A DNA stretch of 64,000 nucleotides from a virus (Duplodnaviria; Caudoviricetes). The translations under genes and the position numbers were made by a program. The stretch covers positions 371,005-435,004 of the IMG/VR virus record IMGVR_UViG_3300027740_000003; one strand, 5' to 3'. Of this stretch, positions 39,659-64,000 are shown piece after piece. The notes beneath the pieces were generated by a model, which saw only the letters and a list, made by a program, of their open reading frames with translations, was not told the origin of the DNA and did no database searches. The stretch's first letter is position 1. The number at the start of each line of letters is the position of its first letter.

Positions 39659-40276
39659 CTATTTGCTTTTGCGGGTTTTTAATGTTTTTTCTCCAACGAT
39701 TTTATCAATTAAACCAAAATCTTTTGCTTCCTCAGCGGAAAAATAAGTTTCTTCTTTCATTAATTTTTTAACTGTTTCCAACGATTGGCCGGTAAAATCA
39801 GATACCATACCTGCCAGCTTAGTATTTAAATTGTTAACCATTGTTGCTTTTTTTACCAAATCGGAAGTTGATTCAACAAATTCTTCAACATTTACATTTT
39901 GAACTTCATGTATTAAAATGTGAGAATTAGGAAAAGCTCTTCTTTCTCCCTTTGCCCCAGCTCCTAAAAGTATAGCTCCACAAGAATAAGCTTTTCCAAT
40001 ACATGTTGTTCTCACTGGCGCTTTAATATAATTCATTGTATCGTATATTGTAAATAGTCCAGAGTGAATTCCTCCACCATTCGTATTTATATACAAATCA
40101 ATTGGATCTGTTTCACTTTTGCTATTTAAAAATAGCAAAGATGCACAAATTATTGTTGCAACCTCAGTATTGATGTCCGTTGCAAGAAATAATATTCTCT
40201 CTTTAACCAGTCTGGAAAAGATATCATATAAAACTTCACCGTCTTTTGTCTTCTCAAATACTAGTGGGTTTATCAT
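39659..40276 (-). CDS. clpP: ClpP-family serine protease
   Basis: DIFSRLVKERILFL, INTNGG, AYSCG (Ser), ILIHE (His), EETYFSAEEAKDFGLID. Confidence 0.93.
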   Translation of the reverse strand: MINPLVFEKTKDGEVLYDIFSRLVKERILFLATDINTEVATIICASLLFLNSKSETDPIDLYINTNGGGIHSGLFTIYDTMNYIKAPVRTTCIGKAYSCGAILLGAGAKGERRAFPNSHILIHEVQNVNVEEFVESTSDLVKKATMVNNLNTKLAGMVSDFTGQSLETVKKLMKEETYFSAEEAKDFGLIDKIVGEKTLKTRKSK

Positions 40277-43090: not shown

Positions 43091-43119
43091 AACCTAACCA
43101 TCCCGCCGTTGTCTGTCAA
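43091..43119 (-). promoter_or_regulatory. sigma70-type promoter
   Basis: TTGACA-N17-TAGGTT; the -35 TGA is the stop of the ligase gene. Confidence 0.7.
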
Positions 43120-43727
43120 GCTAGTTCTTTAAACTTTCTTTCGTCCCCACCACAAAATTCCTTCAATTCATCAAACCAACTCTGCCGCTTCAACTTCACC
43201 ATGAACGGCTGGCCGGTCTTTTTGTCCAAACTACCTTTGCATACAACCCCCTCAGATCCTAATCCTTCTAGAGTTCCGTCTTTAACCGATTGGACAAAAT
43301 CATCTGTTAATGGCCCTTGGTAGAGCACAGGGGCCGTTTTTGAAAACAATTCAACGAACTGCTCCGGGATTAGAAAACCCTTTTTATAAAACGAAATATC
43401 AATAAATGAACACTGGTGCGGTTCCGTGTGATGTTGACCAAATTTAGAATGTTCCCCATGAAATTCAAAAAAGCATATGGCGGAATCTATTTTTGTGGAT
43501 AATAAAATATTATTAATATCTTTTTCTTGTTCTTTGATCAAACCAATGGATTCACCAAGAGGAACATCAGATTCTGAAATAAGTCGCGTTCTTGAACCAA
43601 ACTTGTAGAATCCTCTTTTTCGATTCCATTCTGCTCTAATATTAGAACCATCTATCTTTTGGAAAGCAACTATATGTTTTCCAACATCAGATTGTTGAAA
43701 ATAACGAATTGTTGGATATGATTTCAA
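43116..43727 (-). CDS. RNA-ligase-like covalent nucleotidyltransferase (adenylation domain only)
   Basis: Motif I KIDGSN, FFEFHG, motif IV EGVV, motif V MVKLK. Confidence 0.8.
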   Translation of the reverse strand: MKSYPTIRYFQQSDVGKHIVAFQKIDGSNIRAEWNRKRGFYKFGSRTRLISESDVPLGESIGLIKEQEKDINNILLSTKIDSAICFFEFHGEHSKFGQHHTEPHQCSFIDISFYKKGFLIPEQFVELFSKTAPVLYQGPLTDDFVQSVKDGTLEGLGSEGVVCKGSLDKKTGQPFMVKLKRQSWFDELKEFCGGDERKFKELA

Positions 43728-43728
43728 T

Positions 43729-44025
43729 TTAAATATATCTTTCTATCAAATACACTTCGTCTTTTTCATCATAGCCAACAACTAGAATTGGTTCGCCTTT
43801 TCTAATTTTTCTACGATATGTTTTAGACATCATTGATGTTTTTGCCATAACATGTCTATCATTTAAATAGATTAGACCGCCTTCTTCATCAATAATTGTT
43901 TCAGCAAAAAATCTTTTTCCAATAAAATCACTTGGTTTTATTTTTGGCTCATAATAAAACATTGTTGCATAAACTGCAACAAAAACAACTATACTAACTA
44001 TTATTGGAATAATATATTGAAACAT
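43729..44025 (-). CDS. NfeD-like membrane protein
   Basis: N-terminal TM helix plus OB-like IGK...GLIYL...IRKGEPILVVG. Confidence 0.6.
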   Translation of the reverse strand: MFQYIIPIIVSIVVFVAVYATMFYYEPKIKPSDFIGKRFFAETIIDEEGGLIYLNDRHVMAKTSMMSKTYRRKIRKGEPILVVGYDEKDEVYLIERYI

Positions 44026-44531
44026 TATATATTTATACTAAAATATGTGTTTCGATTATCCCAAGCTGATCCTTTCAGGATAGCTCTAAAGGTGGGAGAC
44101 TTCTTTTCCTCATCCCGCATTAGAACAGATCTTTCGAATAACCATTTAATAGCCAGATATACCGGGGAAGGATCTAGACCGTCGTACCCTACTTTGTCAA
44201 TTAGCTCTCTTGACGTCAAGGGCTTGGAGGAACTTTCCACAACATCAACTATTTCTTTTAATAGTTCTTTATACGAAGGATCATCCTCTGCTTCTTTTAA
44301 TTCATTATTAACAATTGTAGGTTTAATTCTACGACTTCTTTTAACATCTTCATGATTAAAAGCCTTTAATACTTTTTGCAATTTGTCCCGTTCTTCTCTA
44401 AGTTCATATATCTTTTCTAGTTCAGAATCAATTTCGTTGCGTCTTTCTATGGCTTTTTTACACATATCGGCGGGTTTTGTAATACCGCTATCTACACAGC
44501 TTGAAATGAAATCTTCGACAAAATCGGACAT
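44025..44531 (-). CDS. coiled-coil plus winged-helix protein
   Basis: LTSRELIDKV...VYLAIKWLFERSVL. Confidence 0.55.
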   Translation of the reverse strand: MSDFVEDFISSCVDSGITKPADMCKKAIERRNEIDSELEKIYELREERDKLQKVLKAFNHEDVKRSRRIKPTIVNNELKEAEDDPSYKELLKEIVDVVESSSKPLTSRELIDKVGYDGLDPSPVYLAIKWLFERSVLMRDEEKKSPTFRAILKGSAWDNRNTYFSINI

Positions 44532-44586
44532 GCTTCTTCTCCAATGATGGGAGGAAAGGTTGTATTAGACGGAACGGCTCGACAGA

Positions 44587-45087
44587 TTAGCACATATTGA
44601 TAATTTCTTTCAAAGACTCAAATAAATCATCATATTCATCACACGGCTCCCATAACAAACCCAGAGAGCTCATTTTTTCGAAACCGGCAGATCCAATAAG
44701 CATTTCGTACAAACCTTCCTGTTTCCATCCAGCAGGTGTTTTTAACACAAATAAACCATAATCTTCTATTCCATAAATAGCTTTTACTCCATGAATAGGT
44801 CCTTTGTTTACGGCATAAGTGGCCAAGAATTCATGATAATCATTTTGATTATTGCAAAGATCCGTTGCAATAACTTTAACTTGCATACCTTGGTGCTTTA
44901 AAACACCACACCATAAACCAAATTTCTCCGGTGATATATTCCCTAGTTCATCTTCAAACTCTATGTTAATCGTTTTATCTAGAAGAAATTCTTTCGTTGT
45001 TATTCCTGTTTTGCCAAAATTAGGAGGTGGAACCATTCCTAATTTGCCCAAAATCAACTTGCAAAGTTCTTTACGAAGTTCTTTCAT
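44587..45087 (-). CDS. hypothetical protein
   Basis: 166 aa; start coupled to a tail ORF. Confidence 0.7.
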   Translation of the reverse strand: MKELRKELCKLILGKLGMVPPPNFGKTGITTKEFLLDKTINIEFEDELGNISPEKFGLWCGVLKHQGMQVKVIATDLCNNQNDYHEFLATYAVNKGPIHGVKAIYGIEDYGLFVLKTPAGWKQEGLYEMLIGSAGFEKMSSLGLLWEPCDEYDDLFESLKEIINMC

Positions 45088-45581
45088 TCTATTATGTCCC
45101 TTATCATTAAATCATCTTTTGTTAGTTTTATTATTTTTTCATTGTTTTCTTTAATATAACCGGACATAATATAAAAATTATTCACCAAAATAACTCCTTT
45201 ACCAAAATTTTTTAAAAAATAAACACCATCATTTATTCCAACACAATCTGTAAATTTATAATATGCACTCTCGATCTCTACAATGTTTTCATCAAAAACC
45301 CAACTCCATTTCTCATTACACTCAACATACCCTCCATTACTCAAAGCCTTATTAAAATCCAATGATCCTCGGAAAGATCCGTTCATCTCAATATAATTAA
45401 AAATATTTCCTTTAAGATTGGAAGGAAAAATATAAGTCTCTGGACCAGAATCAGGAACATTTGCCGCCGAAACTACAATACAAGTACCGTTTTCTACTGC
45501 GTATACTTTTTGCGAAACATAATGGTCATATAAAATATTATTATTTGCAGGATTTTGATCTTTTAAAAAAATTACCTTCAT
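45084..45581 (-). CDS. MIKDIIE-tail protein (two-part, 165 aa)
   Basis: Ends KLTKDDLMIRDIIE. Confidence 0.85.
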   Translation of the reverse strand: MKVIFLKDQNPANNNILYDHYVSQKVYAVENGTCIVVSAANVPDSGPETYIFPSNLKGNIFNYIEMNGSFRGSLDFNKALSNGGYVECNEKWSWVFDENIVEIESAYYKFTDCVGINDGVYFLKNFGKGVILVNNFYIMSGYIKENNEKIIKLTKDDLMIRDIIE

Positions 45582-45871
45582 TCTATTATATCCTTAATCA
45601 TTAAATCGTCTTCAGTTAATTCTTTTATTTTGCCCGTTTCAATTAAAAAATTAATAATTTCTGGCGGATACGATATTTCCCAACTGCCAAATTTACAATT
45701 ATATACATCAATCCAGTCTTTATGAATGAAAGCATCCGTCCAATAAGATTGATGGACAACTTCAAAAATACCTTTCATTCCATACCAAGGAATCATATTT
45801 CCAACCTTATTTGGAAAAATAAATTTTTCAAAATTAAAATAATATATTTTAGAACCAGGTCTAATTTTCAC
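45578..45871 (-). CDS. MIKDIIE-tail protein
   Basis: Ends ELTEDDLMIKDIIE. Confidence 0.85.
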   Translation of the reverse strand: MKIRPGSKIYYFNFEKFIFPNKVGNMIPWYGMKGIFEVVHQSYWTDAFIHKDWIDVYNCKFGSWEISYPPEIINFLIETGKIKELTEDDLMIKDIIE

Positions 45872-46134
45872 TCTATTATATCCCTTATCATTAAATCATC
45901 TTCAGTTAGTTTTTTTATTTTGCCTTCTTTAATCAAAATGTTAATGACTTCGGGCTCATACCATATTTTCCAGGTACCACGTTTAAAATCATATACATCA
46001 AAATAATCTAGATAATATTTGCTTTTTATAATTTTATAGATGCCTTTAAATCCTCGGCAATAAATATTAGCAAACTCAGTTGGACACCAATGCGTTTCAA
46101 AATTGAAATAATATATTCCAGGCTCAACTTCCAT
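45868..46134 (-). CDS. MIKDIIE-tail protein
   Basis: Ends KLTEDDLMIRDIIE; paralogue of 45578-45871. Confidence 0.85.
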   Translation of the reverse strand: MEVEPGIYYFNFETHWCPTEFANIYCRGFKGIYKIIKSKYYLDYFDVYDFKRGTWKIWYEPEVINILIKEGKIKKLTEDDLMIRDIIE

Positions 46135-46158
46135 TCAACTATATCCCTTTTATTTAAA

Positions 46159-46401
46159 TCATAAAATGATATCAACAATAGTTTTTTCCGCTTCAGATAA
46201 TTCAACTAATTGATATTTGTCTAAATATTTATAAGCTTGACACGGAATAAACCAATCAAAATGTCCATCGCCAACTAACAAATTTTCCAATTCAACAAAT
46301 GTAGAGCTTAAATTAATTTTCACCAACCCATGAGGGAAATTTTTAGAATTATCTTTTCTAAATTTATTATTAGAAATATAATATAAACCCGGTTTTATCA
46401 T
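46159..46401 (-). CDS. MIKDIIE-tail protein (variant)
   Basis: Ends ELSEAEKTIVDIIL. Confidence 0.8.
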   Translation of the reverse strand: MIKPGLYYISNNKFRKDNSKNFPHGLVKINLSSTFVELENLLVGDGHFDWFIPCQAYKYLDKYQLVELSEAEKTIVDIIL

Positions 46402-46646
46402 AGTATTAAATCTCTAATCATCATATCATCATCAGTTAGTTTTTGAAAACTTTTATCATTTAAACCCTTAATAAAATTTTCAAAACTACCAATAAGATTT
46501 ATATTATCTTGTATATCAAGAAAATTATAAATATTTTCATCTTTATCTTTATAATGGAAAGAAACTTTATAAATATGTCCTTCTTTTTGCCACCAATCTG
46601 CATTGGTAATTATGTTTGTTAAAAGATAGTACCCCTCTTCAATCAT
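46398..46646 (-). CDS. MIKDIIE-tail protein (variant)
   Basis: Ends KLTDDDMMIRDLIL. Confidence 0.8.
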   Translation of the reverse strand: MIEEGYYLLTNIITNADWWQKEGHIYKVSFHYKDKDENIYNFLDIQDNINLIGSFENFIKGLNDKSFQKLTDDDMMIRDLIL

Positions 46647-47832
46647 CTTTCTTCACCTTAATGAAAATCCCAAAAGGAGGTTCGCAAACTGGACTATTTG
46701 CTGTTGCTAAAAATATTGTCTGGGATCTCTTTGGTTTATTCGGCCATCTAACTAGCATCATGTCAGAATAAAGAATTATGAGATCCGGATGCATAGTCTC
46801 GGCAAGTTCAAAAGCTTTGCTCATATCAGACCCACCCCGGCCTTTAAACTTAATATCTCTATCCTTTAATGTCTTTTTTATTCGTTTAACCCTAATCACT
46901 TCCTGAACTACTACATCAGACGTAATTACTGTACATTTATCCACTAATGTTCCTAATTTCTCTAAATGTCCACAAACATATTCAAACTCTTCCCTCTGCA
47001 TCGAAGCTGATGTATCTACAATAAATACTAATTTGCCAATTTTACTAGTTTGTTCTGTAGGAACAATTATATCAAATGGAAGATATTTTGGATCTGGTTT
47101 ATATGGATTTCTATCCGTTGTTCCTTTAAGGATCTTTTTAGAAAACCTAAATAATATTCTTTCCCATGGTATTGTAGATTTTTTTAATGTATCTATATAT
47201 TCTTCATACCTACTTGGCAACCTGCCTTTCTTCATACTTTTTGTTCGGGCTGCCGCTTTAATAATAGCATCAATCAGCTGTTGGTTATCTACAGATGATG
47301 ATGGTTGTTCTAAATCATTTCCCCAAATATTATCATCTTGTTGCAATAAATTAACAGCGTCTTCTAATTTAATAACATCAGGAGTTTGCTTTTTAGATTG
47401 TCCAGGTTCTTTTTTATCTAATTCAGAAATAAGAAGTTTGTATATTTGTTCTACTGTTTTATTTGATAATGATTTGTCGTAATATATTCCTGGTGGAGGA
47501 GAATATTGTCCACGGAGATCTGATATAATAATATCATTTACAACATAATCCGAAGCAATTGTCCAGATTTTCTTTTTTCTTCCTTGCATTCGTTTTGGAT
47601 GTTGAAGGGCGACATGAAGCCATTCATGCATTGCTACAAACATCTTTTGTTTAAATGTAAGTTTGGTCCATTTATCCGGATTGCAGAAAAAAGTTGTTCC
47701 ATTTGTTCCTGCCCAAAAATTAAGGTCTTGGCGGAATTCAATTGGCATCATAAGAATTGGATAAGAAAATGGCGAAATTACTGCCAAAGATGACAATACT
47801 CTTCTAATGTCTTTTATTATTTCTTCATGCAT
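46639..47832 (-). CDS. DUF2201-type protein: HExxH metallopeptidase-like domain plus VWA domain
   Basis: HEWLHVALQH, WTIASDYVVN, MIDAS DTSASM, GRGGSD. Confidence 0.88.
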   Translation of the reverse strand: MHEEIIKDIRRVLSSLAVISPFSYPILMMPIEFRQDLNFWAGTNGTTFFCNPDKWTKLTFKQKMFVAMHEWLHVALQHPKRMQGRKKKIWTIASDYVVNDIIISDLRGQYSPPPGIYYDKSLSNKTVEQIYKLLISELDKKEPGQSKKQTPDVIKLEDAVNLLQQDDNIWGNDLEQPSSSVDNQQLIDAIIKAAARTKSMKKGRLPSRYEEYIDTLKKSTIPWERILFRFSKKILKGTTDRNPYKPDPKYLPFDIIVPTEQTSKIGKLVFIVDTSASMQREEFEYVCGHLEKLGTLVDKCTVITSDVVVQEVIRVKRIKKTLKDRDIKFKGRGGSDMSKAFELAETMHPDLIILYSDMMLVRWPNKPKRSQTIFLATANSPVCEPPFGIFIKVKKDD

Positions 47833-47833
47833 G

Positions 47834-48115
47834 TTATTCTATTATATCTTTTATTATAACTTCGTCTTTAGTTAGTTCTCTACATTTGTTTTTAACATAT
47901 AGTTCAAAATCTCTATAAAAAATTTTCCCCAAATTAATATTCTTTCTATTAATATAGAAAATAAATGACGGATTAGGACTATTAGCATTTTTAATATCAA
48001 AATACTCACCAACATCAAAACTCCAAATTTCTCCACTAAATAAAAGAATATCAATTTCCTCCAAAACAACATATGTTGTTTCTTTTATTAAACCTAAGGT
48101 GTGTATGTTCATCAT
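47834..48115 (-). CDS. MIKDIIE-tail protein
   Basis: Ends ELTKDEVIIKDIIE. Confidence 0.85.
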   Translation of the reverse strand: MMNIHTLGLIKETTYVVLEEIDILLFSGEIWSFDVGEYFDIKNANSPNPSFIFYINRKNINLGKIFYRDFELYVKNKCRELTKDEVIIKDIIE

Positions 48116-48411
48116 TGTATTATATCTTTTATTATAACTTCGTCTTCAGATATATGTTCAATATATTGTTGAAATTTTTTAAAAGATTGAGGTTCTGTTT
48201 TTAAACGGAACGTTAATCCAAAAGATTGAGGTTCTGTTTTTAAACGGAATGTTAATCCAAATGAATTATTTTTTACAATAAAATCAATCCAAATCGGTTC
48301 GTTTTCTAAATAAACAAATTTGGCTTCTAAAACTGTTCCGGCTTTAAATTGAAAATAATTATTTTTCAAAATGAAAAACCCAATAAACTCTTCTTTTCTA
48401 AAATGAATCAT
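48112..48411 (-). CDS. MIKDIIE-tail protein with internal 13-aa duplication
   Basis: SFGLTFRLKTEPQ twice; ends ISEDEVIIKDIIQ. Confidence 0.85.
   Translation of the reverse strand: MIHFRKEEFIGFFILKNNYFQFKAGTVLEAKFVYLENEPIWIDFIVKNNSFGLTFRLKTEPQSFGLTFRLKTEPQSFKKFQQYIEHISEDEVIIKDIIQ
48181..48261. repeat. 39-bp in-frame tandem duplication
   Basis: Two copies with one mismatch (48211 c, 48250 t). Confidence 0.9.
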
Positions 48412-48656
48412 TTGATAATATCCATTATCATCTTTTCATCCTCAGTTAATTTTTTAATATTTTCATTTATATCTTCAATAGAATTAATATAATATTCCTC
48501 ATTGCCTATTACTAACAATTGATTACTTCCATAGAACAATCCAAATTTAATAATAAATATTTCTCCCTGTTTAAAAACAATATTGCAATAATCATCATCG
48601 AAAATTAGTCTAATAACACAATTTTTCTCAACATAATATGTTCCATTTTCTATCAT
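48408..48656 (-). CDS. MIKDIIE-tail protein (variant)
   Basis: Ends KLTEDEKMIMDIIK. Confidence 0.85.
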   Translation of the reverse strand: MIENGTYYVEKNCVIRLIFDDDYCNIVFKQGEIFIIKFGLFYGSNQLLVIGNEEYYINSIEDINENIKKLTEDEKMIMDIIK

Positions 48657-48904
48657 CTGATAATATCCATTATAATAATTTCGTCATTTGTTAGCTCACG
48701 ACAGTTGTTCACTATTAGTTTTTCCAAAGCCTCTTTACCATCACTAATAAGTGTTGCTATGGTTAAATTATCAATGGACTTTATCTGATAATCCCCATCA
48801 TGTATTATTTTAAACGTTTCTCCTTTAACAAAGTCTCTATAATTATTGTCTAAATAATGTATACAAAAAGGTTCTAATACTGTATAGTACGTTTCAGTTA
48901 TCAT
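48653..48904 (-). CDS. MIKDIIE-tail protein (variant)
   Basis: Ends ELTNDEIIIMDIIR. Confidence 0.85.
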   Translation of the reverse strand: MITETYYTVLEPFCIHYLDNNYRDFVKGETFKIIHDGDYQIKSIDNLTIATLISDGKEALEKLIVNNCRELTNDEIIIMDIIR

Positions 48905-49146
48905 TCTATTATATCCTTAATAACCAACTCTTCTTCTGTAAGTTTTCTTAGATGATTTTTTATAATATATTCCTCGTTATTATCAAATAATTGTTTGGCA
49001 TCAATCTGTATATTGTTTTTATAACAAACCAACTCAAAAGCATCAAAACACTCATAATATCTTAAAACATATAATTCTCCAATTTCGTACTGTAAACCGC
49101 AATAATTAAATCTACTTTCTACAGTATATAAACCTTTCTCAATCAT
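48901..49146 (-). CDS. MIKDIIE-tail protein
   Basis: Ends KLTEEELVIKDIIE. Confidence 0.85.
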   Translation of the reverse strand: MIEKGLYTVESRFNYCGLQYEIGELYVLRYYECFDAFELVCYKNNIQIDAKQLFDNNEEYIIKNHLRKLTEEELVIKDIIE

Positions 49147-49427
49147 AAAATGATATCCGCAATCATAACTTCGTCTTCAGATATTGGGTCAAGAAACGAT
49201 TCAAAATTATCTAAATCTGGCCCTGAAACATATACTAGATTCAATGCATGACTAAGCTCTTTTCTTTTGCATAAAATTATAACAAATTCAACAAATCTAT
49301 TTCCAATCATAGGAATTATTGGCTGAGGATTATAATCCGTATAATCCGTAATTACTGCTTTAAATATTGTTCCGCAAGGAAAATTATAAAAATCCTTTTT
49401 AAGGATATAATAACCTTCTTTAATCAT
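49143..49427 (-). CDS. MIKDIIE-tail protein (variant)
   Basis: Ends PISEDEVMIADIIL. Confidence 0.85.
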   Translation of the reverse strand: MIKEGYYILKKDFYNFPCGTIFKAVITDYTDYNPQPIIPMIGNRFVEFVIILCKRKELSHALNLVYVSGPDLDNFESFLDPISEDEVMIADIIL

Positions 49428-49675
49428 TCTATTATATCCTTTATCATTATTTCGTTTTTGGTTAATCCTCTACATTTTGGTAATATATTCTCTGCAAAAA
49501 TCCGTTTATTTACAACTGTAATATTTTTATTTCCAACCAAATGTATTGCAACATAATTAACACCATATTCGGCTTTAAAACAAACATTATTATCAATAAT
49601 AGTATCGTTTCCAAACTCAATTCCAAACTCAATTTTAATTTTAATATTTTGTAAAGCAACAAAATGTTTAATCAT
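49424..49675 (-). CDS. MIKDIIE-tail protein
   Basis: Ends GLTKNEIMIKDIIE. Confidence 0.85.
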   Translation of the reverse strand: MIKHFVALQNIKIKIEFGIEFGNDTIIDNNVCFKAEYGVNYVAIHLVGNKNITVVNKRIFAENILPKCRGLTKNEIMIKDIIE

Positions 49676-49920
49676 TCTATTATGTCTTTTATCATTAGTT
49701 CGTCATCAGTTAGTTTCGTACTGTTTTTTATAATTTCTTTTATATCTGATTTATAGATATAAATTATCTGGCCTTTAATAATTATATAATTGTGTTCAAA
49801 TTGTTTATGAAACAAATCGCCATCATAATAATCTATAAAAATAGAGTTTCCTTTTTTAATAATACAACATCCTAAACTTTCAAACTCTTCATTAACAACA
49901 TACCAGCCAGACTCTATCAT
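49672..49920 (-). CDS. MIKDIIE-tail protein
   Basis: Ends KLTDDELMIKDIIE. Confidence 0.85.
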   Translation of the reverse strand: MIESGWYVVNEEFESLGCCIIKKGNSIFIDYYDGDLFHKQFEHNYIIIKGQIIYIYKSDIKEIIKNSTKLTDDELMIKDIIE

Positions 49921-51230
49921 CCTGCCGCCACAAATTGCATCAATTCATCAATCTCTTGCTCTGCCAATCCCGAGTCCATTATTATATTTATCAACCGAGT
50001 TGCATGAATCTGTCTCAAATAAATCATCCTAACCTCAGGAACCAAATCACCAATAAATCTAACAATGTTCTTTACATACTTGCTATTAAACTTTGCCTTA
50101 TGCCTGTTCTCTTCACAAGCCTTCTCCACAACAAACATATCACTGTCAATCCGGTCAGACATTGCAAATGCAGCAATACATTGTTCACTAATTAACTTCT
50201 CCCCAGACATACTGTCCTTTGTCGGTATCCTTTCCTCTCCCTCTAAAATCTTCATAACATCATATTTAAGATACAATTCCCGATACATAAAAAATTCTGT
50301 CTGAGCTTGCTTCCCAACAAAATCCTGTAGTTCATTCCTAACAATGTTATTAAAATATTCTACTTGCTCCGTATTATTTTTGTCTATCTTAAGTCTCTTC
50401 TCCAATTTATCAATCACTCGGGAAGCCATAACCCAACTTCTCGGGGTTGGATAAGCATAAGTCTGCTCTAGATCATATTTAACTAACCACTCTCCATTGT
50501 TAAATTTGTGGAATAAGATAATGTCTTTTCTAACATCATGATCAACAGCCCATTTGATCCATGTATCTAGATCTGGTTCAACCTCTAAATGAGCACATCG
50601 GTTCCGCAGTTCTGGAGGAACTGGGTTGGATAAAATACTATCTTCCTCGCGATTTGCCGCGGCTATCACATACCATCCATCTCCTAAAGCAAAATCGCCA
50701 ATTACTCTATTTTCCAAAAGATGCGTTGCTGCCCCGAATTTAGTGTCTGAACATTTGTCTAATTCATCAAGCAGACAAACTCCGAATTTTTCTTTTTTAC
50801 ATCTCTCTAAATTTTCAGGCATAACAAACCGTGCATAATTTTCAGATAAAGAAGGGACTACGACTCCTTGAAGTTGCTCAATAGGTCTTTCGGCTAAACG
50901 TAGAATAAGACAATGAGGAGCAATCATATCAAGAAATTCTTTACCAACATAAGAAAAATTCAGAACCTTCTTTTTATGTTCTAAATTTCTCTTAGCTTCT
51001 TTATATTCTTCTAAAGATTCATAGTCTTTATTTTTCTTTTTTAGTTGAGAAATAAGTTCAGAAAACTCTTTTTCTGCTTCATAAACCATTCTCTCTGAAA
51101 TAATTTGATAAACCAATTCCGTTTTACCGATTCCAGGACTTCCCCACAAAATTACAGGATAATTATCTGTAGGATCATTCCAATCCCATTTAGAAAGAAT
51201 TCTTTCTTTTGCTTGTGCAATGTTAACCAT
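49917..51230 (-). CDS. MoxR-type AAA+ ATPase
   Basis: WGSPGIGKT, LLDELDK, IAAANR, PPELRNRC; charged helical insert after Walker A. Confidence 0.9.
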   Translation of the reverse strand: MVNIAQAKERILSKWDWNDPTDNYPVILWGSPGIGKTELVYQIISERMVYEAEKEFSELISQLKKKNKDYESLEEYKEAKRNLEHKKKVLNFSYVGKEFLDMIAPHCLILRLAERPIEQLQGVVVPSLSENYARFVMPENLERCKKEKFGVCLLDELDKCSDTKFGAATHLLENRVIGDFALGDGWYVIAAANREEDSILSNPVPPELRNRCAHLEVEPDLDTWIKWAVDHDVRKDIILFHKFNNGEWLVKYDLEQTYAYPTPRSWVMASRVIDKLEKRLKIDKNNTEQVEYFNNIVRNELQDFVGKQAQTEFFMYRELYLKYDVMKILEGEERIPTKDSMSGEKLISEQCIAAFAMSDRIDSDMFVVEKACEENRHKAKFNSKYVKNIVRFIGDLVPEVRMIYLRQIHATRLINIIMDSGLAEQEIDELMQFVAAG

Positions 51231-51240
51231 ATTTCCTCTT

Positions 51241-51657
51241 TTATTCTATTATATCTTTTATTACTGCCTCTTCAGCCGTGATTAATTCAAGTTCTTTAAA
51301 TTTAAGATTCATTGAATTTTTCAATGAATCCAATGAATTATATGAGTTCATATAACTCGCAGGATATAACAGTTTATCATTATAGAAAATTATAAATGAA
51401 AAAGTTTCGTCAGCTTTATTCATTTCGCTAATTTTATTTACAACACGTATAATTATACTAGAGCTATGATTAAATTTAACAAAATATTTCTTACCAAAAT
51501 TATAACTATATATTTTATGTCTATCAGATAAATTAGAACAATAATGATTGCAACACTCTCCTGGCTTATAACCAAATTCCGAGATTACAGAATTATATAT
51601 AAATTCAATGTCATATTTTAAATCTATACAATGTTTTATAAAATCATTACTATTCAT
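51241..51657 (-). CDS. MIKDIIE-tail protein
   Basis: Ends LITAEEAVIKDIIE. Confidence 0.85.
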   Translation of the reverse strand: MNSNDFIKHCIDLKYDIEFIYNSVISEFGYKPGECCNHYCSNLSDRHKIYSYNFGKKYFVKFNHSSSIIIRVVNKISEMNKADETFSFIIFYNDKLLYPASYMNSYNSLDSLKNSMNLKFKELELITAEEAVIKDIIE

Positions 51658-52004
51658 TCAATAATATCCTTAATAATACTCTCATCTTTGGTTAATAAAC
51701 CAACTTCTTTAAATGCATTAATCAATGCTTTTCTTAACTCTAAAGGAGTGGTTAGATTTCTTTCCACATAATAGCTATTGCCCATAAAACGATCATAAAA
51801 CATAACCGTACACCCTCCATAATAACTAAATCTAATACAATAAATAATATTATCTTTAGAAGATTTAACAAATCCATTATCTTTGTTGCCACACACAAGA
51901 TTTAATATTACTTCGTCTGAAATCATTCGTAATTTACCAAAATCATATCCATAATCAACAAGAATTGATTTTAAAACATCTAATATTTGTTTTTTGGTAA
52001 TCAT
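51654..52004 (-). CDS. MIKDIIE-tail protein
   Basis: Ends LLTKDESIIKDIIE. Confidence 0.85.
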   Translation of the reverse strand: MITKKQILDVLKSILVDYGYDFGKLRMISDEVILNLVCGNKDNGFVKSSKDNIIYCIRFSYYGGCTVMFYDRFMGNSYYVERNLTTPLELRKALINAFKEVGLLTKDESIIKDIIE

Positions 52005-52354
52005 TCAATGATATCTTTTACCATAACTTCATCTATAGTCAATATGTTAAGCTTCTTTATATCGAAATATTTTTCAAACATTTCTACAAAATTTTCTAAT
52101 CCACCAGCATATTCCTTTTCTCCCAACCATCCAAAATTTTTTATCAAACTTCTTAATGTTAGACGGCCTTTTTCTTTCTTAATTGTAATTTTATTTATTT
52201 AATATGGGGCGGTTTTGAAAAGAAAATATATTCCTATATCCAAATCGTCAATAGTTATTATGTTCTTTAAAGAATTTATAGAAACGTTATGTGAATATTT
52301 TAACAAATAATCAAATATATTCTTATATTTTAAATTTTTGTGGCTAATTTTCAT
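52001..52354 (-). pseudogene. MIKDIIE-tail ORF with tandem in-frame TAA TAA at 52196-52201 (not in track)
   Basis: ATG 52354 and TGA 52001 are in frame (118 codons) and both ends are ATGA-coupled; ends ILTIDEVMVKDIIE. Confidence 0.8.
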
Positions 52355-52737
52355 TCTATTATATCCTTAATTATCATCATATTTTTATAATTTTCCTCAA
52401 CTTTATCTAATTTAGATAGATCTTTTTCTAAATAAGATAACATATGTTTATGATGATTAATTTTATCAATAATCAAACGTTTCATATGCTCTTTAGCATT
52501 AAATAATGCCTCTTCTGGAAAAACAAATCTTCTATCTAATAGACAATTTGATTTTTCATCAATCATAACTGTCCACATATCATCAAGATCATGGTAAATC
52601 AAATCAACACCCAAATATTCTGAATGATAAATATAACTCCATTCACTATGTTTAGTATCAATATCTTTGATACTAAAATAAATTCCTAAAACAGTAATTT
52701 CTTTTTCAATAGAAGGATTTTGAACCGCTTTTTTCAT
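52351..52737 (-). CDS. MIKDIIE-tail protein, coiled-coil type
   Basis: Ends YKNMMIIKDIIE. Confidence 0.85.
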   Translation of the reverse strand: MKKAVQNPSIEKEITVLGIYFSIKDIDTKHSEWSYIYHSEYLGVDLIYHDLDDMWTVMIDEKSNCLLDRRFVFPEEALFNAKEHMKRLIIDKINHHKHMLSYLEKDLSKLDKVEENYKNMMIIKDIIE

Positions 52738-53141
52738 TCAATAATATCCTTAATAGACATTTGCTCTTTACACTCTTTAAATATCTCTTCCAATGTAGTC
52801 ATATATTGACTATATAAATGGAATCTTTCATTTGCTTCTTTTACTTTATTTTTGCAAGCGGAAACTTCATATTTAGCATCTTCTAATTTAGAATTCATTC
52901 TTTTTTTAAAATCGCCAAGAACTCTATTTAAAGCCTCAACATCTGTTTTGCCGCCAGGAAAAACATCTCCACGAAAAATAAAACTATACTTACTATTTTC
53001 AAATTTTTCATCAATATACATTTCTATAAAAGGCAATTCTGTACATTCATATTTCATATTAAATTTGCCATCACACAGATTAAGGGTTTTAAGTGTAAAC
53101 TTTTTTCCACAAATAACAATTTCTTTCTCTATGTAATTCAT
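52734..53141 (-). CDS. MIKDIIE-tail protein, coiled-coil type
   Basis: Ends KEQMSIKDIIE. Confidence 0.85.
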   Translation of the reverse strand: MNYIEKEIVICGKKFTLKTLNLCDGKFNMKYECTELPFIEMYIDEKFENSKYSFIFRGDVFPGGKTDVEALNRVLGDFKKRMNSKLEDAKYEVSACKNKVKEANERFHLYSQYMTTLEEIFKECKEQMSIKDIIE

Positions 53142-54355
53142 GTTAGTTTCCCTACATTTGGATCAATCTTTTTACACAATTCTAGCATAGCTTCACTTGC
53201 TGAAGAATGAATTTTAGTAATATCATTCTTGTTTCCAAGTGAAAATGTTTTTATATCAGTTGTCTTTCCTCTTTTCAAAGCAAATAATGCCGCAGGCCAC
53301 AATCTTTCTTTTGCAGCTAATGCAAAAGTTTTTATATCTTCAATTCCTTGAAGATCCTCCCAGTCCTTCTGGGTTGTAGATATTACCTGCTGTACAATAG
53401 GTTTTAATTTTAGAATGCGTTTAGTTATCAACTCAGGCATCAATCCAACAATATCATCATCTTTGCCAAGCAGAATGACATTTATACAATTCTTTACCGA
53501 TGTTTCTAAACTAGTTCTTAGATGAGAAGCCGCTAACCAAGCCGGATTTTTTACTTTAATCCGATGCCAGTATTTGTCCCTAACAACAACCCCTTCATGT
53601 TCTTCAGGATTCCATTCTCGAATTACTTTGACCATATGCTCAATATTATAAAATGAATATGTATTTGGGACACATAATTCAAATCTGTCATCTCCAAGTC
53701 CAATCCATCCATCAGGCTCCTCTTCCTCTAATGTTATATTGTCCCTTACCCCAATTAATGTCAATTTTATATCATCATACCTACATACTACCCTATTGTA
53801 GGGGGATGTAAGTTCAAAAATGAACGTTTTGTTCTTGGCGTCTGGCCGACATTCTGATAAATCTCCCATCAGGTCTTGTATAGACATCGGCGGGTCATCA
53901 GAAACAGTTCCTGGAGCCTGTTGAGCTATATACATTTTATCACAGGCATAATCTACAAGTTTGGAAAAAGTTAAATCACATCCGTTCTCCAAGGGAACAT
54001 CTGCTTCCGGACGAGATCTTGTTGCGACATACCAATGATTTTTGTAAAAATACACACAAATCATAGTTCCGTCTAGTTTTTCTAAATATCCAGCACTTGA
54101 CCAGTCTATTTTGGCAGCAAACTCTTCTTGCTCGAGATTAAAAAATCTTGAAAAAGGAAAAGCTAGAATATCATAAGATCCTTCTTCTAAAACCAAGCCA
54201 CGACATTCACAAGCTAGAAGATCAGAGTTAGATACTTCTAGTTGATCATAGTTTAGAGAGATCTTTCCATTAGTTATGGTAGCATAAACGCCATGTTCTT
54301 TAGCAAGATCATCGAGGGTTTTACCAGAGAGGAGGTATTTTTGAATTAGAAGCAT
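53138..54355 (-). CDS. RNA ligase (T4 Rnl1-like)
   Basis: CRGLVL, FPFSRFFN, motif I EKLDGT, FIFEL, motif IV EGVVV, motif V RIKVKN. Confidence 0.88.
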   Translation of the reverse strand: MLLIQKYLLSGKTLDDLAKEHGVYATITNGKISLNYDQLEVSNSDLLACECRGLVLEEGSYDILAFPFSRFFNLEQEEFAAKIDWSSAGYLEKLDGTMICVYFYKNHWYVATRSRPEADVPLENGCDLTFSKLVDYACDKMYIAQQAPGTVSDDPPMSIQDLMGDLSECRPDAKNKTFIFELTSPYNRVVCRYDDIKLTLIGVRDNITLEEEEPDGWIGLGDDRFELCVPNTYSFYNIEHMVKVIREWNPEEHEGVVVRDKYWHRIKVKNPAWLAASHLRTSLETSVKNCINVILLGKDDDIVGLMPELITKRILKLKPIVQQVISTTQKDWEDLQGIEDIKTFALAAKERLWPAALFALKRGKTTDIKTFSLGNKNDITKIHSSASEAMLELCKKIDPNVGKLT

Positions 54356-54737
54356 TTTCTATTGTTTCCTTATCTGAAACTATATCTAATACACCAATTA
54401 TTCTTTTAATATTTACAAATTTAGTTTCGTCTATTTTTCCAATAAAAATAGTATAATCTGCTACTTTTATTCCAACAACCGAAAGTTCTTTAAGTTCTTT
54501 AATAATATCCGGAATCTGATCATTTGAAGCAGATTTAATTACATAACCAGAGCCTACAGACTTTAGTAGTGATGATAGATCTGAGATCTCCTCTGTGGGG
54601 ACAACATCACCATTTTCTCTACGTCTGTCAAGTTCTTGCATTGCTTTAATTGCCAGGTCTTTGTTTATTTTGAAAGCCCTATATGTGGCAATTATTGAAA
54701 CCAAAGAATCTATCGTAAATGTTTCTAGTTCTATCAT
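54321..54737 (-). CDS. hypothetical protein
   Basis: Start refined to ATG 54737 (ATGA overlap with the tail ORF stop). Confidence 0.65.
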   Translation of the reverse strand: MIELETFTIDSLVSIIATYRAFKINKDLAIKAMQELDRRRENGDVVPTEEISDLSSLLKSVGSGYVIKSASNDQIPDIIKELKELSVVGIKVADYTIFIGKIDETKFVNIKRIIGVLDIVSDKETIENASNSKIPPLW

Positions 54738-55150
54738 TCTATTATATCTTTTATCATTGCTTCGTCTGGAGTTAATAGTTTTAACTCTATGAATTCTTTT
54801 TCTAAAGCTGAAATTATATTTATATAAGAATTTGTATAACACCAATGAAGTACAATAGGATGATCTGGATACGATATACAATATATAAATCCAGTTCGAT
54901 GATAACGAAAACAATTTATTTTAACATAATTTATTTTATGAAGATTTTTCAATCCAAAAAAGAAATCGCATCTAATTATATAAGAAAAATAAAAATATTC
55001 ATTATGAATTTGTATTTTACTTTTGCTAGTATTATATCCGAATTTTTTCAACAAATTAATTATATCCACAGTTATTTTGTTTTCAAAATAAAAAATGTGT
55101 CGGCGGAACTTTTCTTTTAATTCTTTTTTCTTCTTCCTACTCAATTTCAT
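54734..55150 (-). CDS. MIKDIIE-tail protein
   Basis: Ends LLTPDEAMIKDIIE. Confidence 0.85.
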   Translation of the reverse strand: MKLSRKKKKELKEKFRRHIFYFENKITVDIINLLKKFGYNTSKSKIQIHNEYFYFSYIIRCDFFFGLKNLHKINYVKINCFRYHRTGFIYCISYPDHPIVLHWCYTNSYINIISALEKEFIELKLLTPDEAMIKDIIE

Positions 55151-55503
55151 TCTATTATGTCCTTAATAAGCGTTTCGTCTTTTGTTAGAACCTTGCTGTC
55201 TCTAAATGTTTTTACCAATATATTTTTGATATCACTGAAGTTAGTGAAAATATATTTTTTACCATAATCCAAAGAAGATTCAATATAAAATATTTTTCTG
55301 GATAAAATTACAATATACCATTTATTACATTCTAAATAATTACAACCATTACTAAAAAGCTGTTGAGTATTACAAAGATGAATATAACTCTCATGATTAG
55401 TATTAAAATCATGATTCAATTTAACAGCATCAAACTCATAATTGTTTTTAATAAACTCAATTATTTGATTATATAAACTAAAATATGTTTTATCATCATT
55501 CAT
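55147..55503 (-). CDS. MIKDIIE-tail protein
   Basis: Ends VLTKDETLIKDIIE. Confidence 0.85.
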   Translation of the reverse strand: MNDDKTYFSLYNQIIEFIKNNYEFDAVKLNHDFNTNHESYIHLCNTQQLFSNGCNYLECNKWYIVILSRKIFYIESSLDYGKKYIFTNFSDIKNILVKTFRDSKVLTKDETLIKDIIE

Positions 55504-55793
55504 TATTCAATTATATCCTTAATCATAGCCTCTGTTTTGTTCAACAAACCTATATTTTTAATTTCTTTTCTCAAAAATGATTTTATATCTTTCATTGAAT
55601 TATAATTACATTTTTTAAAATTAAATTCAATCTTATGTAAATTTTGATAAACGAAAATTCTTTGAATAATTTCTCTTTTAATATTGTAAAAGCCAAATGT
55701 TATTATATTTCTATGAACAATACAACTAATATTAAAACCATACTCTTTGTTAAAGAAATATATTATTTCGTTTATTAATTTTTGTTTATTCAT
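55503..55793 (-). CDS. MIKDIIE-tail protein
   Basis: Ends LLNKTEAMIKDIIE. Confidence 0.85.
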   Translation of the reverse strand: MNKQKLINEIIYFFNKEYGFNISCIVHRNIITFGFYNIKREIIQRIFVYQNLHKIEFNFKKCNYNSMKDIKSFLRKEIKNIGLLNKTEAMIKDIIE

Positions 55794-56116
55794 TTAATAT
55801 CTTTTGTTGGAAAGAATTTAACTCTTTTCTTCGACAAAACAAATTTTCCCAATCCATTAATTGCAACCTCTTTGTTTTTCATTAATTCTGTTCTAATTTC
55901 CTGATAATACTCTTTTAGAATTATTCCTATCACCGTTATGTCTAATCCTGTTTTTGCTCTAACCGAATACAATAATTCTTTTTGATCTGAGAATGAAATA
56001 GGAATATTTCCAGAATTTTGTTCTGAGTATTCTTCAATTCCAGGAGGCAGATCGTCTTTTTCTTTTTCTGCCCCGATTTCTTTATTGTTTTTCATCATTT
56101 GCCAAAAATTCGCCAT
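55790..56116 (-). CDS. HU/IHF-like DNA-binding protein with acidic N-terminal extension
   Basis: VRAKTGLD...EIRTELMKNKEVAINGLGKFVL. Confidence 0.7.
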   Translation of the reverse strand: MANFWQMMKNNKEIGAEKEKDDLPPGIEEYSEQNSGNIPISFSDQKELLYSVRAKTGLDITVIGIILKEYYQEIRTELMKNKEVAINGLGKFVLSKKRVKFFPTKDIK

Positions 56117-56480: not shown

Positions 56481-57254
56481 TCAGTATCCTAAATTTAATA
56501 TTGGTTTAAATGCTGGGCCATCAATAACAATTTTATCACCAAGTCCATCATTTGAAATAATTTGTCCAGTCAACCTGCCAGTATCATAGATTCCACTATC
56601 TAGGTTGCAAGAGTGAGTATAATACTTTGCCTGGCCATCTTCCTGAGCAGCATGTCCAGAAACAATATATCCAAACCGCCCATCATAAACTTCATGCCAT
56701 GATGTTCCACCTTCTTTGGACTTAACTAGAGTTTTTACTCCATTAATCATTTGCCAGACTAGTGGGATCATTTTTCCATTTTCATCTACGTCTCGGACAT
56801 AAACAACCTCGACATCTTTGCCGAGACTGTTCTGATCCATCAGCGGACTAACACCAGCATGTAGAACAGTTATTTTCATGTTTGGAAATTCAAATGTAAT
56901 AACTAATGGTCTTCCCCTCCACCATTTTAAACATTTAGATAAAGGATTTTTCTTTTTCGATCTAATTATTTTTACTTCATGATTACCACGGACAGCATAA
57001 GCAATATGTTTATCAGATAATCTAATAAGTTCTTCTGTTATTATTTCAGCAGATTTTTCACCATAACCTTTATCATAAACATCTCCTACTGAGACAATTA
57101 ATTTCGTAGGAGAAGGTTTCCATTCTTCCAAAAGATTAAAAAATTGTTCTGTATGTTCATGTATATCGCCAATAATACATATAGAAGTATTTTCTGGAAC
57201 CTGAATTGTTTGAAATGCAGGCAATTTAGAAGCATCTTTATATGTATTGCTCAT
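56481..57254 (-). CDS. calcineurin-like metallophosphoesterase
   Basis: GDIHEH, GDVYDKG, GNHE, VLHAG, VSGH, LDSG. Confidence 0.9.
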   Translation of the reverse strand: MSNTYKDASKLPAFQTIQVPENTSICIIGDIHEHTEQFFNLLEEWKPSPTKLIVSVGDVYDKGYGEKSAEIITEELIRLSDKHIAYAVRGNHEVKIIRSKKKNPLSKCLKWWRGRPLVITFEFPNMKITVLHAGVSPLMDQNSLGKDVEVVYVRDVDENGKMIPLVWQMINGVKTLVKSKEGGTSWHEVYDGRFGYIVSGHAAQEDGQAKYYTHSCNLDSGIYDTGRLTGQIISNDGLGDKIVIDGPAFKPILNLGY

Positions 57255-63616: not shown

Positions 63617-64000
63617 TTAGAACCCTCTTAACAAAGCTACTCTTCCAAATGGTGGTTTGAAATTTTTGTTTTCTGATGTTATTACCCAGAGAACATCGAC
63701 ACCAGGATCTTTTAACTCAGTATCGAAAAGATAACCATCAGTCATGATGATCATCATGTCAACTTCTTCTCGGATATATTTTCTCCAATTGGTTAATAGG
63801 TCGGAAATTACGGTGCCTCCCCTGCCGTGGATGCTTATATTCGGCAAATCATTCATTCCTTGAATCTTTGTTGCTTTGTCCCAATACACTTGTGCATCCC
63901 AACAAACAACAGTTCCTTCAGACCTACCGTCTAGGCATTTCAATTGACTTACTCCGTAAGCCATATCTTCTCTAGTCATGGAGCCAGACGTATCAAGGCC
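63617..64000 (-). CDS. second DUF2201-type VWA protein, C-terminal part (runs off window end)
   Basis: Frame open to the edge: GLDTSGSM (MIDAS), GRGGT, IMTDGY, VLWVIT. Confidence 0.85.
   Translation of the reverse strand, partial: GLDTSGSMTREDMAYGVSQLKCLDGRSEGTVVCWDAQVYWDKATKIQGMNDLPNISIHGRGGTVISDLLTNWRKYIREEVDMMIIMTDGYLFDTELKDPGVDVLWVITSENKNFKPPFGRVALLRGF

Follow-up and report, generated by a model that had tools for sequence, protein, structure and literature searches.

Are two partner genes separated by a set of small genes because they read a peptide that these genes share, or were the small genes simply inserted between them? This question is raised by a locus in the final 64 kb (the window; G000:371005-435004) of the 435-kb phage record G000 (IMGVR_UViG_3300027740_000003). 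Here, a gene for a MoxR-class AAA+ ATPase and a gene for a protein with an HExxH motif and a VWA domain are separated by eight small open reading frames (ORFs) ending in ...IKDIIE-like tails, which are called the tag. The two genes are designated pair 1, and a paralogous MoxR/DUF2201 pair is designated pair 2. The locus is the most obvious reader candidate for a tag carried by approximately 126 proteins. Very probably, however, it represents an old, ordinary gene pair invaded by tagged genes, with no specific link between pair and tag. An older, tag-independent module removes the tempting answer, which is unsupported.

Coordinates are window positions unless prefixed by a G or L label. All genes of the locus are on the minus strand. 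The layout was checked by ORF calling and a six-frame tail scan. The initial annotation had counted eight tagged ORFs splitting the AAA+ gene from the VWA gene and five more on each side, and their ORFs, coordinates and tails were all confirmed.

51241-53141, minus strand: five tagged ORFs of 48-138 aa between RNA ligase 1 and AAA+
52199-52354, minus strand: untagged 51-aa ORF amid the preceding tagged group
49917-51230, minus strand: MoxR-class AAA+ ATPase of pair 1, 437 aa (Pfam AAA_5/AAA, PHROG 1297)
47834-49920, minus strand: eight tagged ORFs of 81-99 aa inside the pair, ATGA-chained with 4-nt overlaps
46639-47832, minus strand: DUF2201_N + DUF2201/VWA protein of pair 1, 397 aa (Pfam, PHROG 1314)
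45084-46646, minus strand: five tagged ORFs between the VWA gene and 44587-45087, four of them in the MIExGxY family

Gene Order in Tag-Free Relatives

Relatives of the locus were collected as 25 loci with an orthologous AAA+ gene, from a profile scan of metagenome contigs and look-ups of four homologs. Single-protein scans of viral contigs gave no match to the AAA+ or the VWA gene, and a profile scan of these viral contigs gave only G001. G000 and G001 are the two complete tag-bearing genomes. BLASTP of the ORFs of the relatives against G000 revealed a backbone of co-directional genes in the order metallophosphatase, HU-like, 54321-54914, RNA ligase 1, AAA+, VWA, 44587-45087, 44025-44531, RNA ligase, NADAR, DksA-like and ClpP. 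The members around pair 1, with the tagged ORFs of one more junction, are as follows.

56481-57254, minus strand: metallophosphatase, backbone
55790-56116, minus strand: HU-like, backbone
54734-55793, minus strand: three tagged ORFs in the next backbone junction
54321-54914, minus strand: backbone gene
53138-54355, minus strand: RNA ligase 1, T4 Rnl1-type (Pfam RNA_lig_T4_1, 1.2e-14)
44025-45087, minus strand: two backbone genes (44025-44531 and 44587-45087; 166 and 168 aa) with no family, directly after VWA in relatives
43116-43727, minus strand: second RNA ligase (PF09414), backbone
39659-40276, minus strand: ClpP protease, beside a DksA/TraR-type zinc-finger gene

The genes for Rnl1, AAA+, VWA, and the 44587- and 44025-homologs are in the same order in L121, L122/L123 and L126 (AAA+ identity 52-57%), L175/L176, and L177. 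In tag-free relatives, the RNA ligase 1 gene lies directly upstream of AAA+. Neither a tagged ORF nor any other common tail was found in these syntenic tag-free relatives (7.5-21 kb each). The tag-free relatives as a whole are contigs of 7-107 kb, each examined over at most 21 kb (7-21 kb). The identity of AAA+ to that of G000, the gap between AAA+ and VWA, and the tagged ORFs are summarized below.

L175/L176: AAA+ 50-53%; gap 0; no tagged ORF in 21 kb
L121, L122/L123: AAA+ about 55-57%; gap approximately 0.3 kb; no tagged ORF in up to 18 kb
L126: AAA+ about 54%; gap approximately 0.9 kb; no tagged ORF in 8.8 kb
L177: AAA+ 67%; gap 0; no tagged ORF in 21 kb
L129-L131: AAA+ 36%; gap 0-0.1 kb; no tagged ORF
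L178: AAA+ 70%; gap 1 kb with three untagged ORFs; one tagged ORF in 17 kb, none in the gap
G001, L116, L119: AAA+ 60-61%; gap 2.7-4.2 kb; two or three tagged ORFs in the gap, in G001 plus six or seven untagged ORFs
L112: AAA+ 87%; gap 1.6 kb; five tagged ORFs in the gap

L114 and L115 also have a gap without tagged ORFs. The gap of G000 is 2.1 kb long and is made up of inserted ORFs. No homology was detected by BLASTP between the gap ORFs of the G001 clade and those of G000. The adjacency in tag-free relatives and the non-homologous gap ORFs indicate that adjacency is ancestral and that the fillings are lineage-specific. Between G000 and L112, orthologous tagged ORFs are kept, including those with variant tails.

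Two side observations concern the backbone. The phage ClpP gene, located 6 kb downstream of VWA, belongs to the same backbone and is kept in tag-free relatives too (L175-L178 loci). The Rnl1 gene contains inteins: L126:776-3085 encodes 770 aa with LAGLIDADG_2 and Intein_splicing domains, and L178:2707-4323 has a faint Intein_splicing match.

Tagged ORFs in the Junctions of the Backbone

A position-specific scoring matrix of the 13-residue tail identifies 126 tagged ORFs in G000, compared with none among 3873 internal control 13-mers. The codons of the tails differ synonymously; therefore, it is the peptide that is conserved. Tagged ORFs are seen in 31 of the 154 junctions between G000 genes that are conserved with G001. 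By tag count, the AAA+/VWA junction is in fifth place with eight, and the neighbouring backbone junctions hold five, five, three, four, and four. Tags fill every consecutive junction of the backbone, and the pair is not singled out. This stretch of G000 contains approximately 29 tagged genes where the backbone of tag-free relatives has none. The simpler of the two options raised in the initial annotation, that tagged cassettes were merely inserted between the partners, is thus supported by comparative synteny, and such insertion is not limited to this junction.

Twelve ORFs at 45578-49920, on both sides of the VWA gene, have a common MIExGxY start, a central G and a layout of about 82 aa. This single layout on both sides is consistent with a local tandem family. 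The bodies of the eight inserted ORFs, without the tag, show no pairwise BLASTP match at E<=1e-3, and their kinship is suggested solely by the layout and the N-terminal motif. The tail-coding sequence forms a repeat of 42-44 nt, with 15 copies at the locus (65-89% identity), which offers homology for recombination. One tagged ORF (48112-48411) contains a 39-nt tandem duplication, perfect to 97%, at 48181-48258, which doubles 13 residues (GLTFRLKTEPQSF). It looks like a recent in-frame event.

From RNA ligase 1 to the 44587 gene, all genes are chained by 4-nt overlaps. Promoter-like and terminator-like sites at the locus are not in excess over the shuffled expectation. In G000, 81 of the 126 tails are followed by a TGA stop, typically as GAATGA, where the final Glu codon and the stop hold the ATG of the next gene in a 4-nt overlap. 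Thus, the choice of the terminal residue is entangled with translational coupling. The second codon of the next gene starting with A would explain the frequent MI/MK/MN/MT starts.

Most likely, an ancestral, normally adjacent MoxR/metallopeptidase-vWA pair of the chaperone type was part of a conserved co-directional backbone. Small, fast-evolving tagged genes then multiplied in this lineage and colonised all the junctions of the backbone, including the pair's own. Tandem duplication probably drove this spread, together with recombination where the conserved tail, stop and start meet. The tag arrays are thus recent, lineage-specific expansions. Because the 4-nt ATGA overlap of stop and start has been retained by each inserted gene, the two partners probably remain in one translationally coupled transcription unit and continue to act as a pair.

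The Two Genes of the Pair

The AAA+ protein matches AAA_5 with 23.0 bits (cut-off 22) and AAA with 22.4 bits (cut-off 21.2), both barely over the threshold, and PHROG 1297 at 2e-42. Walker A (GSPGIGKT) corresponds to residues 30-37, and Walker B (DELD) to residues 155-158. Among 38 sequences, G33/G35/K36, D155-E156, L157-D158, N193, and R211 are invariant. By their positions, N193 and R211 are candidates for sensor 1 and the arginine finger. The protein belongs to a sharply bounded clade of 48 proteins with 35-100% identity. In its AlphaFold2 model (mean predicted local distance difference test, pLDDT, 86.8), Walker A is followed by a long helical insert (residues ~36-106). In Foldseek, the model best matches the NorQ hexamer and the complexes of NorQ with NorD (E from 3e-7 to 1e-5; template modelling score, TM, normalized by target 0.53-0.60), and MCM, clamp loaders, McrB and Lon rank below NorQ. 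The PDB sequence search with the AAA+ profile gave a marginal ClpB match only. The AAA+ core, the MoxR-type structure and the VWA neighbour all place the gene in the MoxR class.

The C-terminal helix of AAA+ (...LAEDEIDELIKFIAAG) was considered as a look-alike of the tag, with the tag mimicking the tail of the ATPase. This candidate was dropped as a chance likeness of acidic amphipathic helices. When a hidden Markov model of the tail was compared with 565 non-tag ORFs of G000, the C-terminus of AAA+ was outside the top 20 weak matches. In L119:8639-11194, and also in L120 and L132, the P-loop of AAA+ contains an in-frame intein of approximately 415 aa directly after residue 36. It carries intein splicing and LAGLIDADG domains and interrupts Walker A.

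The partner matches DUF2201_N at 1.2e-22 (81.3 bits; cut-off 23.2), DUF2201 at 2.9e-13 (50.5 bits; cut-off 26.4) and PHROG 1314 at 6e-65. Its HExxH motif is at residues 69-73, and H69, E70, H73, and H78 are invariant in 12 orthologs. The conservation of this motif suggests peptidase activity. The MIDAS motif (for metal ion-dependent adhesion site) consists of D273-T-S275-A-S277, T304 and D357. In the same orthologs, D273, T274, S275, S277, and D357 never vary, and T304 hardly does. The C-terminal domain is predicted to resemble the VWA folds of VWF A2, MDN1-MIDAS, integrin and BatB (model pLDDT 72, moderate confidence). The Pfam matches, the HExxH motif and the predicted VWA fold with MIDAS all point to a protein of the DUF2201_N + DUF2201 type. 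The PDB sequence search gave no relative of the VWA protein, and nothing functional was found in the literature on DUF2201.

An insert of about 45 aa resembling a zinc ribbon (CxxC ... CPxC) is present between the HExxH and VWA domains in L116, L118, L119, L121, L122, and L126. These orthologs show 43-51% identity, and the insert occupies alignment columns ~175-215. G000, L112, L114, and the distant L129/L131 do not have it.

Distribution of the Pair and the Tag

The initial annotation also proposed that the acidic DIIE-COOH tail is the ligand of the MIDAS metal and that the pair is therefore the reader of the tag. Tail and pair are not co-distributed across the genomes compared. The pair is present without tags in L121-L126, L129-L131, L175-L177, and cultured jumbo phages, and tags are present without pair 1 at the G005 site; all but the cultured phages are represented by incomplete genomes. 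SCTP-2, S-TIM54, and CBB have an AAA+ of the pair 1 family, and the tag pattern was not found in their whole genomes. The HExxH, MIDAS DxSxS/T/D, and Walker motifs are invariant with or without tags, and no lineage-specific change in the AAA+ or the VWA protein follows the presence of tags.

The G005 fragment is 131 kb long (31% complete) and bears 31 tags, for the most part IKNIIE. Here it is collinear with G000, yet the order reads Rnl1 (78125-79354), an untagged 93-aa ORF and the 44587-homolog (77346-77855). Pair 1 is absent from this syntenic site and from the entire fragment. In G001, the pair 1 locus holds only five of the 117 tags; the main array of 56 tags is 100 kb distant. With a stricter DNA pattern for the tag, only five tag-bearing IMG/VR contigs were found: G001, G005, G006, G007, and one of 7.4 kb.

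To count acidic residues, tags were detected without using positions -4 and -1 (114 tails of G001, 31 of G005 and 124 of G000). Position -4 is D/N in G000, D/E/N/S/G in G001, and mostly N/K/S in G005/G006. It is N/K/S/T in 28 of the 31 tails of G005, and D/E in the other three, as in 79/114 tails of G001. Position -1 is D/E in 62/114 tails of G001 and K/T/V/Q/I/S in 52/114 (K in 26, T/V/Q in 24). In G000 it is D/E in 95/124, and 23% of the tails end with a non-acidic residue. Among the G001 tails, 18/114 (16%) lack D/E throughout the last six residues. These acid-free tails argue against an obligatory acidic ligand of the MIDAS metal. The alpha-carboxylate of the tail is a possible MIDAS ligand. 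A prediction of the complex between the complete HExxH-VWA protein, Mg and one 82-aa tagged ORF gave a score of 0.01 (mark 0.32), which speaks neither for nor against binding.

The invariant core of the tail is I-[KR]-x-I-I, a hydrophobic I-x-x-I-I face with a basic residue, and neither acidic position is required. The true reader of the tag should recognise this face and the basic residue. With complete genomes, the tag-free relatives with the same backbone would provide a natural comparison set for finding this reader by phylogenetic profiling.

Alternative Explanations

Several facts weigh against the reading as an old pair invaded by tagged genes. Both complete tag-bearing genomes have pair 1. 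The tags of G000 form 26 clusters, and the largest one, with 18 of the 126 tags, is the pair 1 locus. Two AAA+ clades that are well apart, G000/L112 and G001/L116/L119, have tags within the pair; the deep forks of the AAA+ tree are without support, and the tree is compatible with one or two origins of this state. The limited length examined in each tag-free relative means that tags may be present elsewhere in their genomes. Finally, the loss of the basic residue at position -5 of the tail is seen at this locus (4/18) and not elsewhere (0/108, p=3e-4), and is the only locus-exclusive feature.

The pair could instead act on tagged proteins in a looser manner. Pair 1 and/or pair 2 would contact them via the I-[KR]-x-I-I face, or the HExxH protein would trim or degrade them, and the tag, as a chaperone address or as a degron, would mark some of the clients. 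This is unlikely, even though the conserved HExxH motif suggests peptidase activity and peptidolytic processing has been proposed for this type of pair (PMC7824862). The distribution of pair 2 favours it: pair 2 is seen in all three tag-bearing genomes examined, in G001 (130684-133547) and G005 (89477-92330), both with a tagged ORF directly upstream, and in part in G000.

63617-64000, minus strand: C-terminal 127 aa of a second DUF2201/VWA protein, from the MIDAS motif on (Pfam DUF2201, 2.6e-13), cut by the record end

This stub shares 52-59% identity with the VWA2 proteins that G005 and G001 encode. The missing parts of pair 2, the N-terminus of the VWA protein and the AAA+, do not turn up at the opposite end of the record; G000 thus breaks off inside pair 2 despite its completeness estimate of 100%. 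On the other hand, tag-free L177 has pair 2 beside pair 1, both in 21 kb without tags. G001 keeps a small part of its tags at pair 1, with its main array far away, and neither protein changes with the presence of tags.

A related possibility is that the C-terminal helix has an ATP-driven receptor in one MoxR/HExxH-VWA pair. The pair would bind the I-[KR]-x-I-I face rather than acidic residues; it would load, remodel or proteolytically time the proteins; and it would have been co-opted after the tag arose on a backbone already bearing the pair. This is quite improbable. If it were true, the receptor pair would handle approximately 1/7 of the phage proteins.

Tagged genes might also hitch-hike on the regulation of the operon. 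They would be kept there for the same timing and dose as the backbone genes (RNA ligases, chaperone pair), without physical contact with the pair. The ATGA-coupled chains from Rnl1 to the 44587 gene, the internal promoter and terminator signals not above chance, and the orthologous tagged ORFs with variant tails in G000 and L112 fit this explanation. The 26 tag clusters in many other transcriptional contexts and the rapid turnover of gap contents between relatives do not, and it is given very little credence.

The strictest version, in which an acidic residue of the tail completes the MIDAS metal and the pair recognises and remodels all tagged proteins as CbbQO does with Rubisco, is hardly tenable: the MIDAS motif is intact, client carboxylates are bound by MIDAS in CbbQO and probably in NorQD, the pair 1 locus is the top tag cluster of G000 and both complete tag-bearing genomes have the pair, but the same pair and MIDAS are seen in syntenic tag-free relatives and in tag-free cultured jumbo phages, G005 has 31 tags and no pair 1, and positions -4 and -1 are often non-acidic in G005, G001 and G000.

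Comparison with Known Systems

Two general statements of the initial annotation agree with the literature: MoxR AAA+ and VWA genes usually lie next to each other, and a carboxylate of the client completes the MIDAS metal of the VWA domain, as in CbbQO (PMC4660213, PMC13036017). Pair 1 is a divergent new member of a jumbo-phage module already described (PMC7824862). The MoxR/metallopeptidase-vWA pair of group 2.2 jumbo phages has been proposed to act as chaperone and cochaperone when the virion is assembled, with processing by proteolysis (Iyer, Anantharaman, Krishnan, Burroughs, Aravind 2021, PMC7824862). Like pair 1, it consists of a MoxR-class AAA+ and, next in order, a protein that combines an N-terminal HExxH domain (DUF2201_N) with a C-terminal vWA domain (DUF2201), corresponding to PHROGs 1297 and 1314. 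This type of pair occurs in phage G, CBB/GAP32, SCTP-2 and S-TIM5-like cyanophages. The AAA+ is matched by 311 phage records. Its neighbour in CBB is a DUF2201_N gene, and in S-TIM54 the next gene encodes 381 aa (family unchecked). Pair 1 differs from the group 2.2 pair in its identity of only ~24-28% to cultured examples, in the helical insert of AAA+ and in the tagged ORFs that split the genes.

NorQ/NorD and CbbQ/CbbO resemble pair 1 in three respects. NorQ is the best structural match of AAA+, the VWA domain has a DxSxS-T-D MIDAS, and the genes are ancestrally adjacent. The N-terminus of the pair 1 partner is an HExxH peptidase-like module, unlike the N-domain of NorD/CbbO. Another virus-encoded MoxR-VWA pair, p618 (MoxR) and p892 (VWA) of Acidianus two-tailed virus, has been proposed to function in virion (tail) assembly (cited in PMC4660213, PMC7824862). 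Compared by description, it differs from pair 1 in belonging to an archaeal virus and in having a VWA protein without a peptidase domain.

The tag is similar to degrons of the ssrA/ClpXP type in being a short C-terminal peptide on unrelated proteins, and AAA+ and protease-like genes are nearby (MoxR, HExxH, ClpP). Unlike that system, the tag is not co-distributed with the MoxR, HExxH or ClpP genes, as far as was found; all of them are present in tag-free relatives. MoxR ATPases are not known to serve proteases as unfoldase partners.

Variation of the Tails

The most divergent tails had been described as clustering at this locus. Only the absence of a basic residue at -5 bears this out; the other measures are not significant. 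Tails deviating from I[KR][DN]II[EQ] are 6/18 at the locus and 20/108 elsewhere (p=0.13). Those with a last residue other than E/Q/D are 5/18 and 11/108, respectively (p=0.053). The four tails without a basic residue at -5 are all from one local paralog family, and therefore they are not independent events. At least one variant tail is kept in the L112 ortholog (MIADIIL vs MIANIIL), which indicates that the -5 variants are maintained rather than decaying. Another common tail, ...(D/N)EEWIIFQIIN, is seen at the end of three small ORFs of G005 (G005:85314-86182 and 99253-99519; L134:3314-4182 and 17253-17519). This tail may represent a sub-type of the tag that has diverged.

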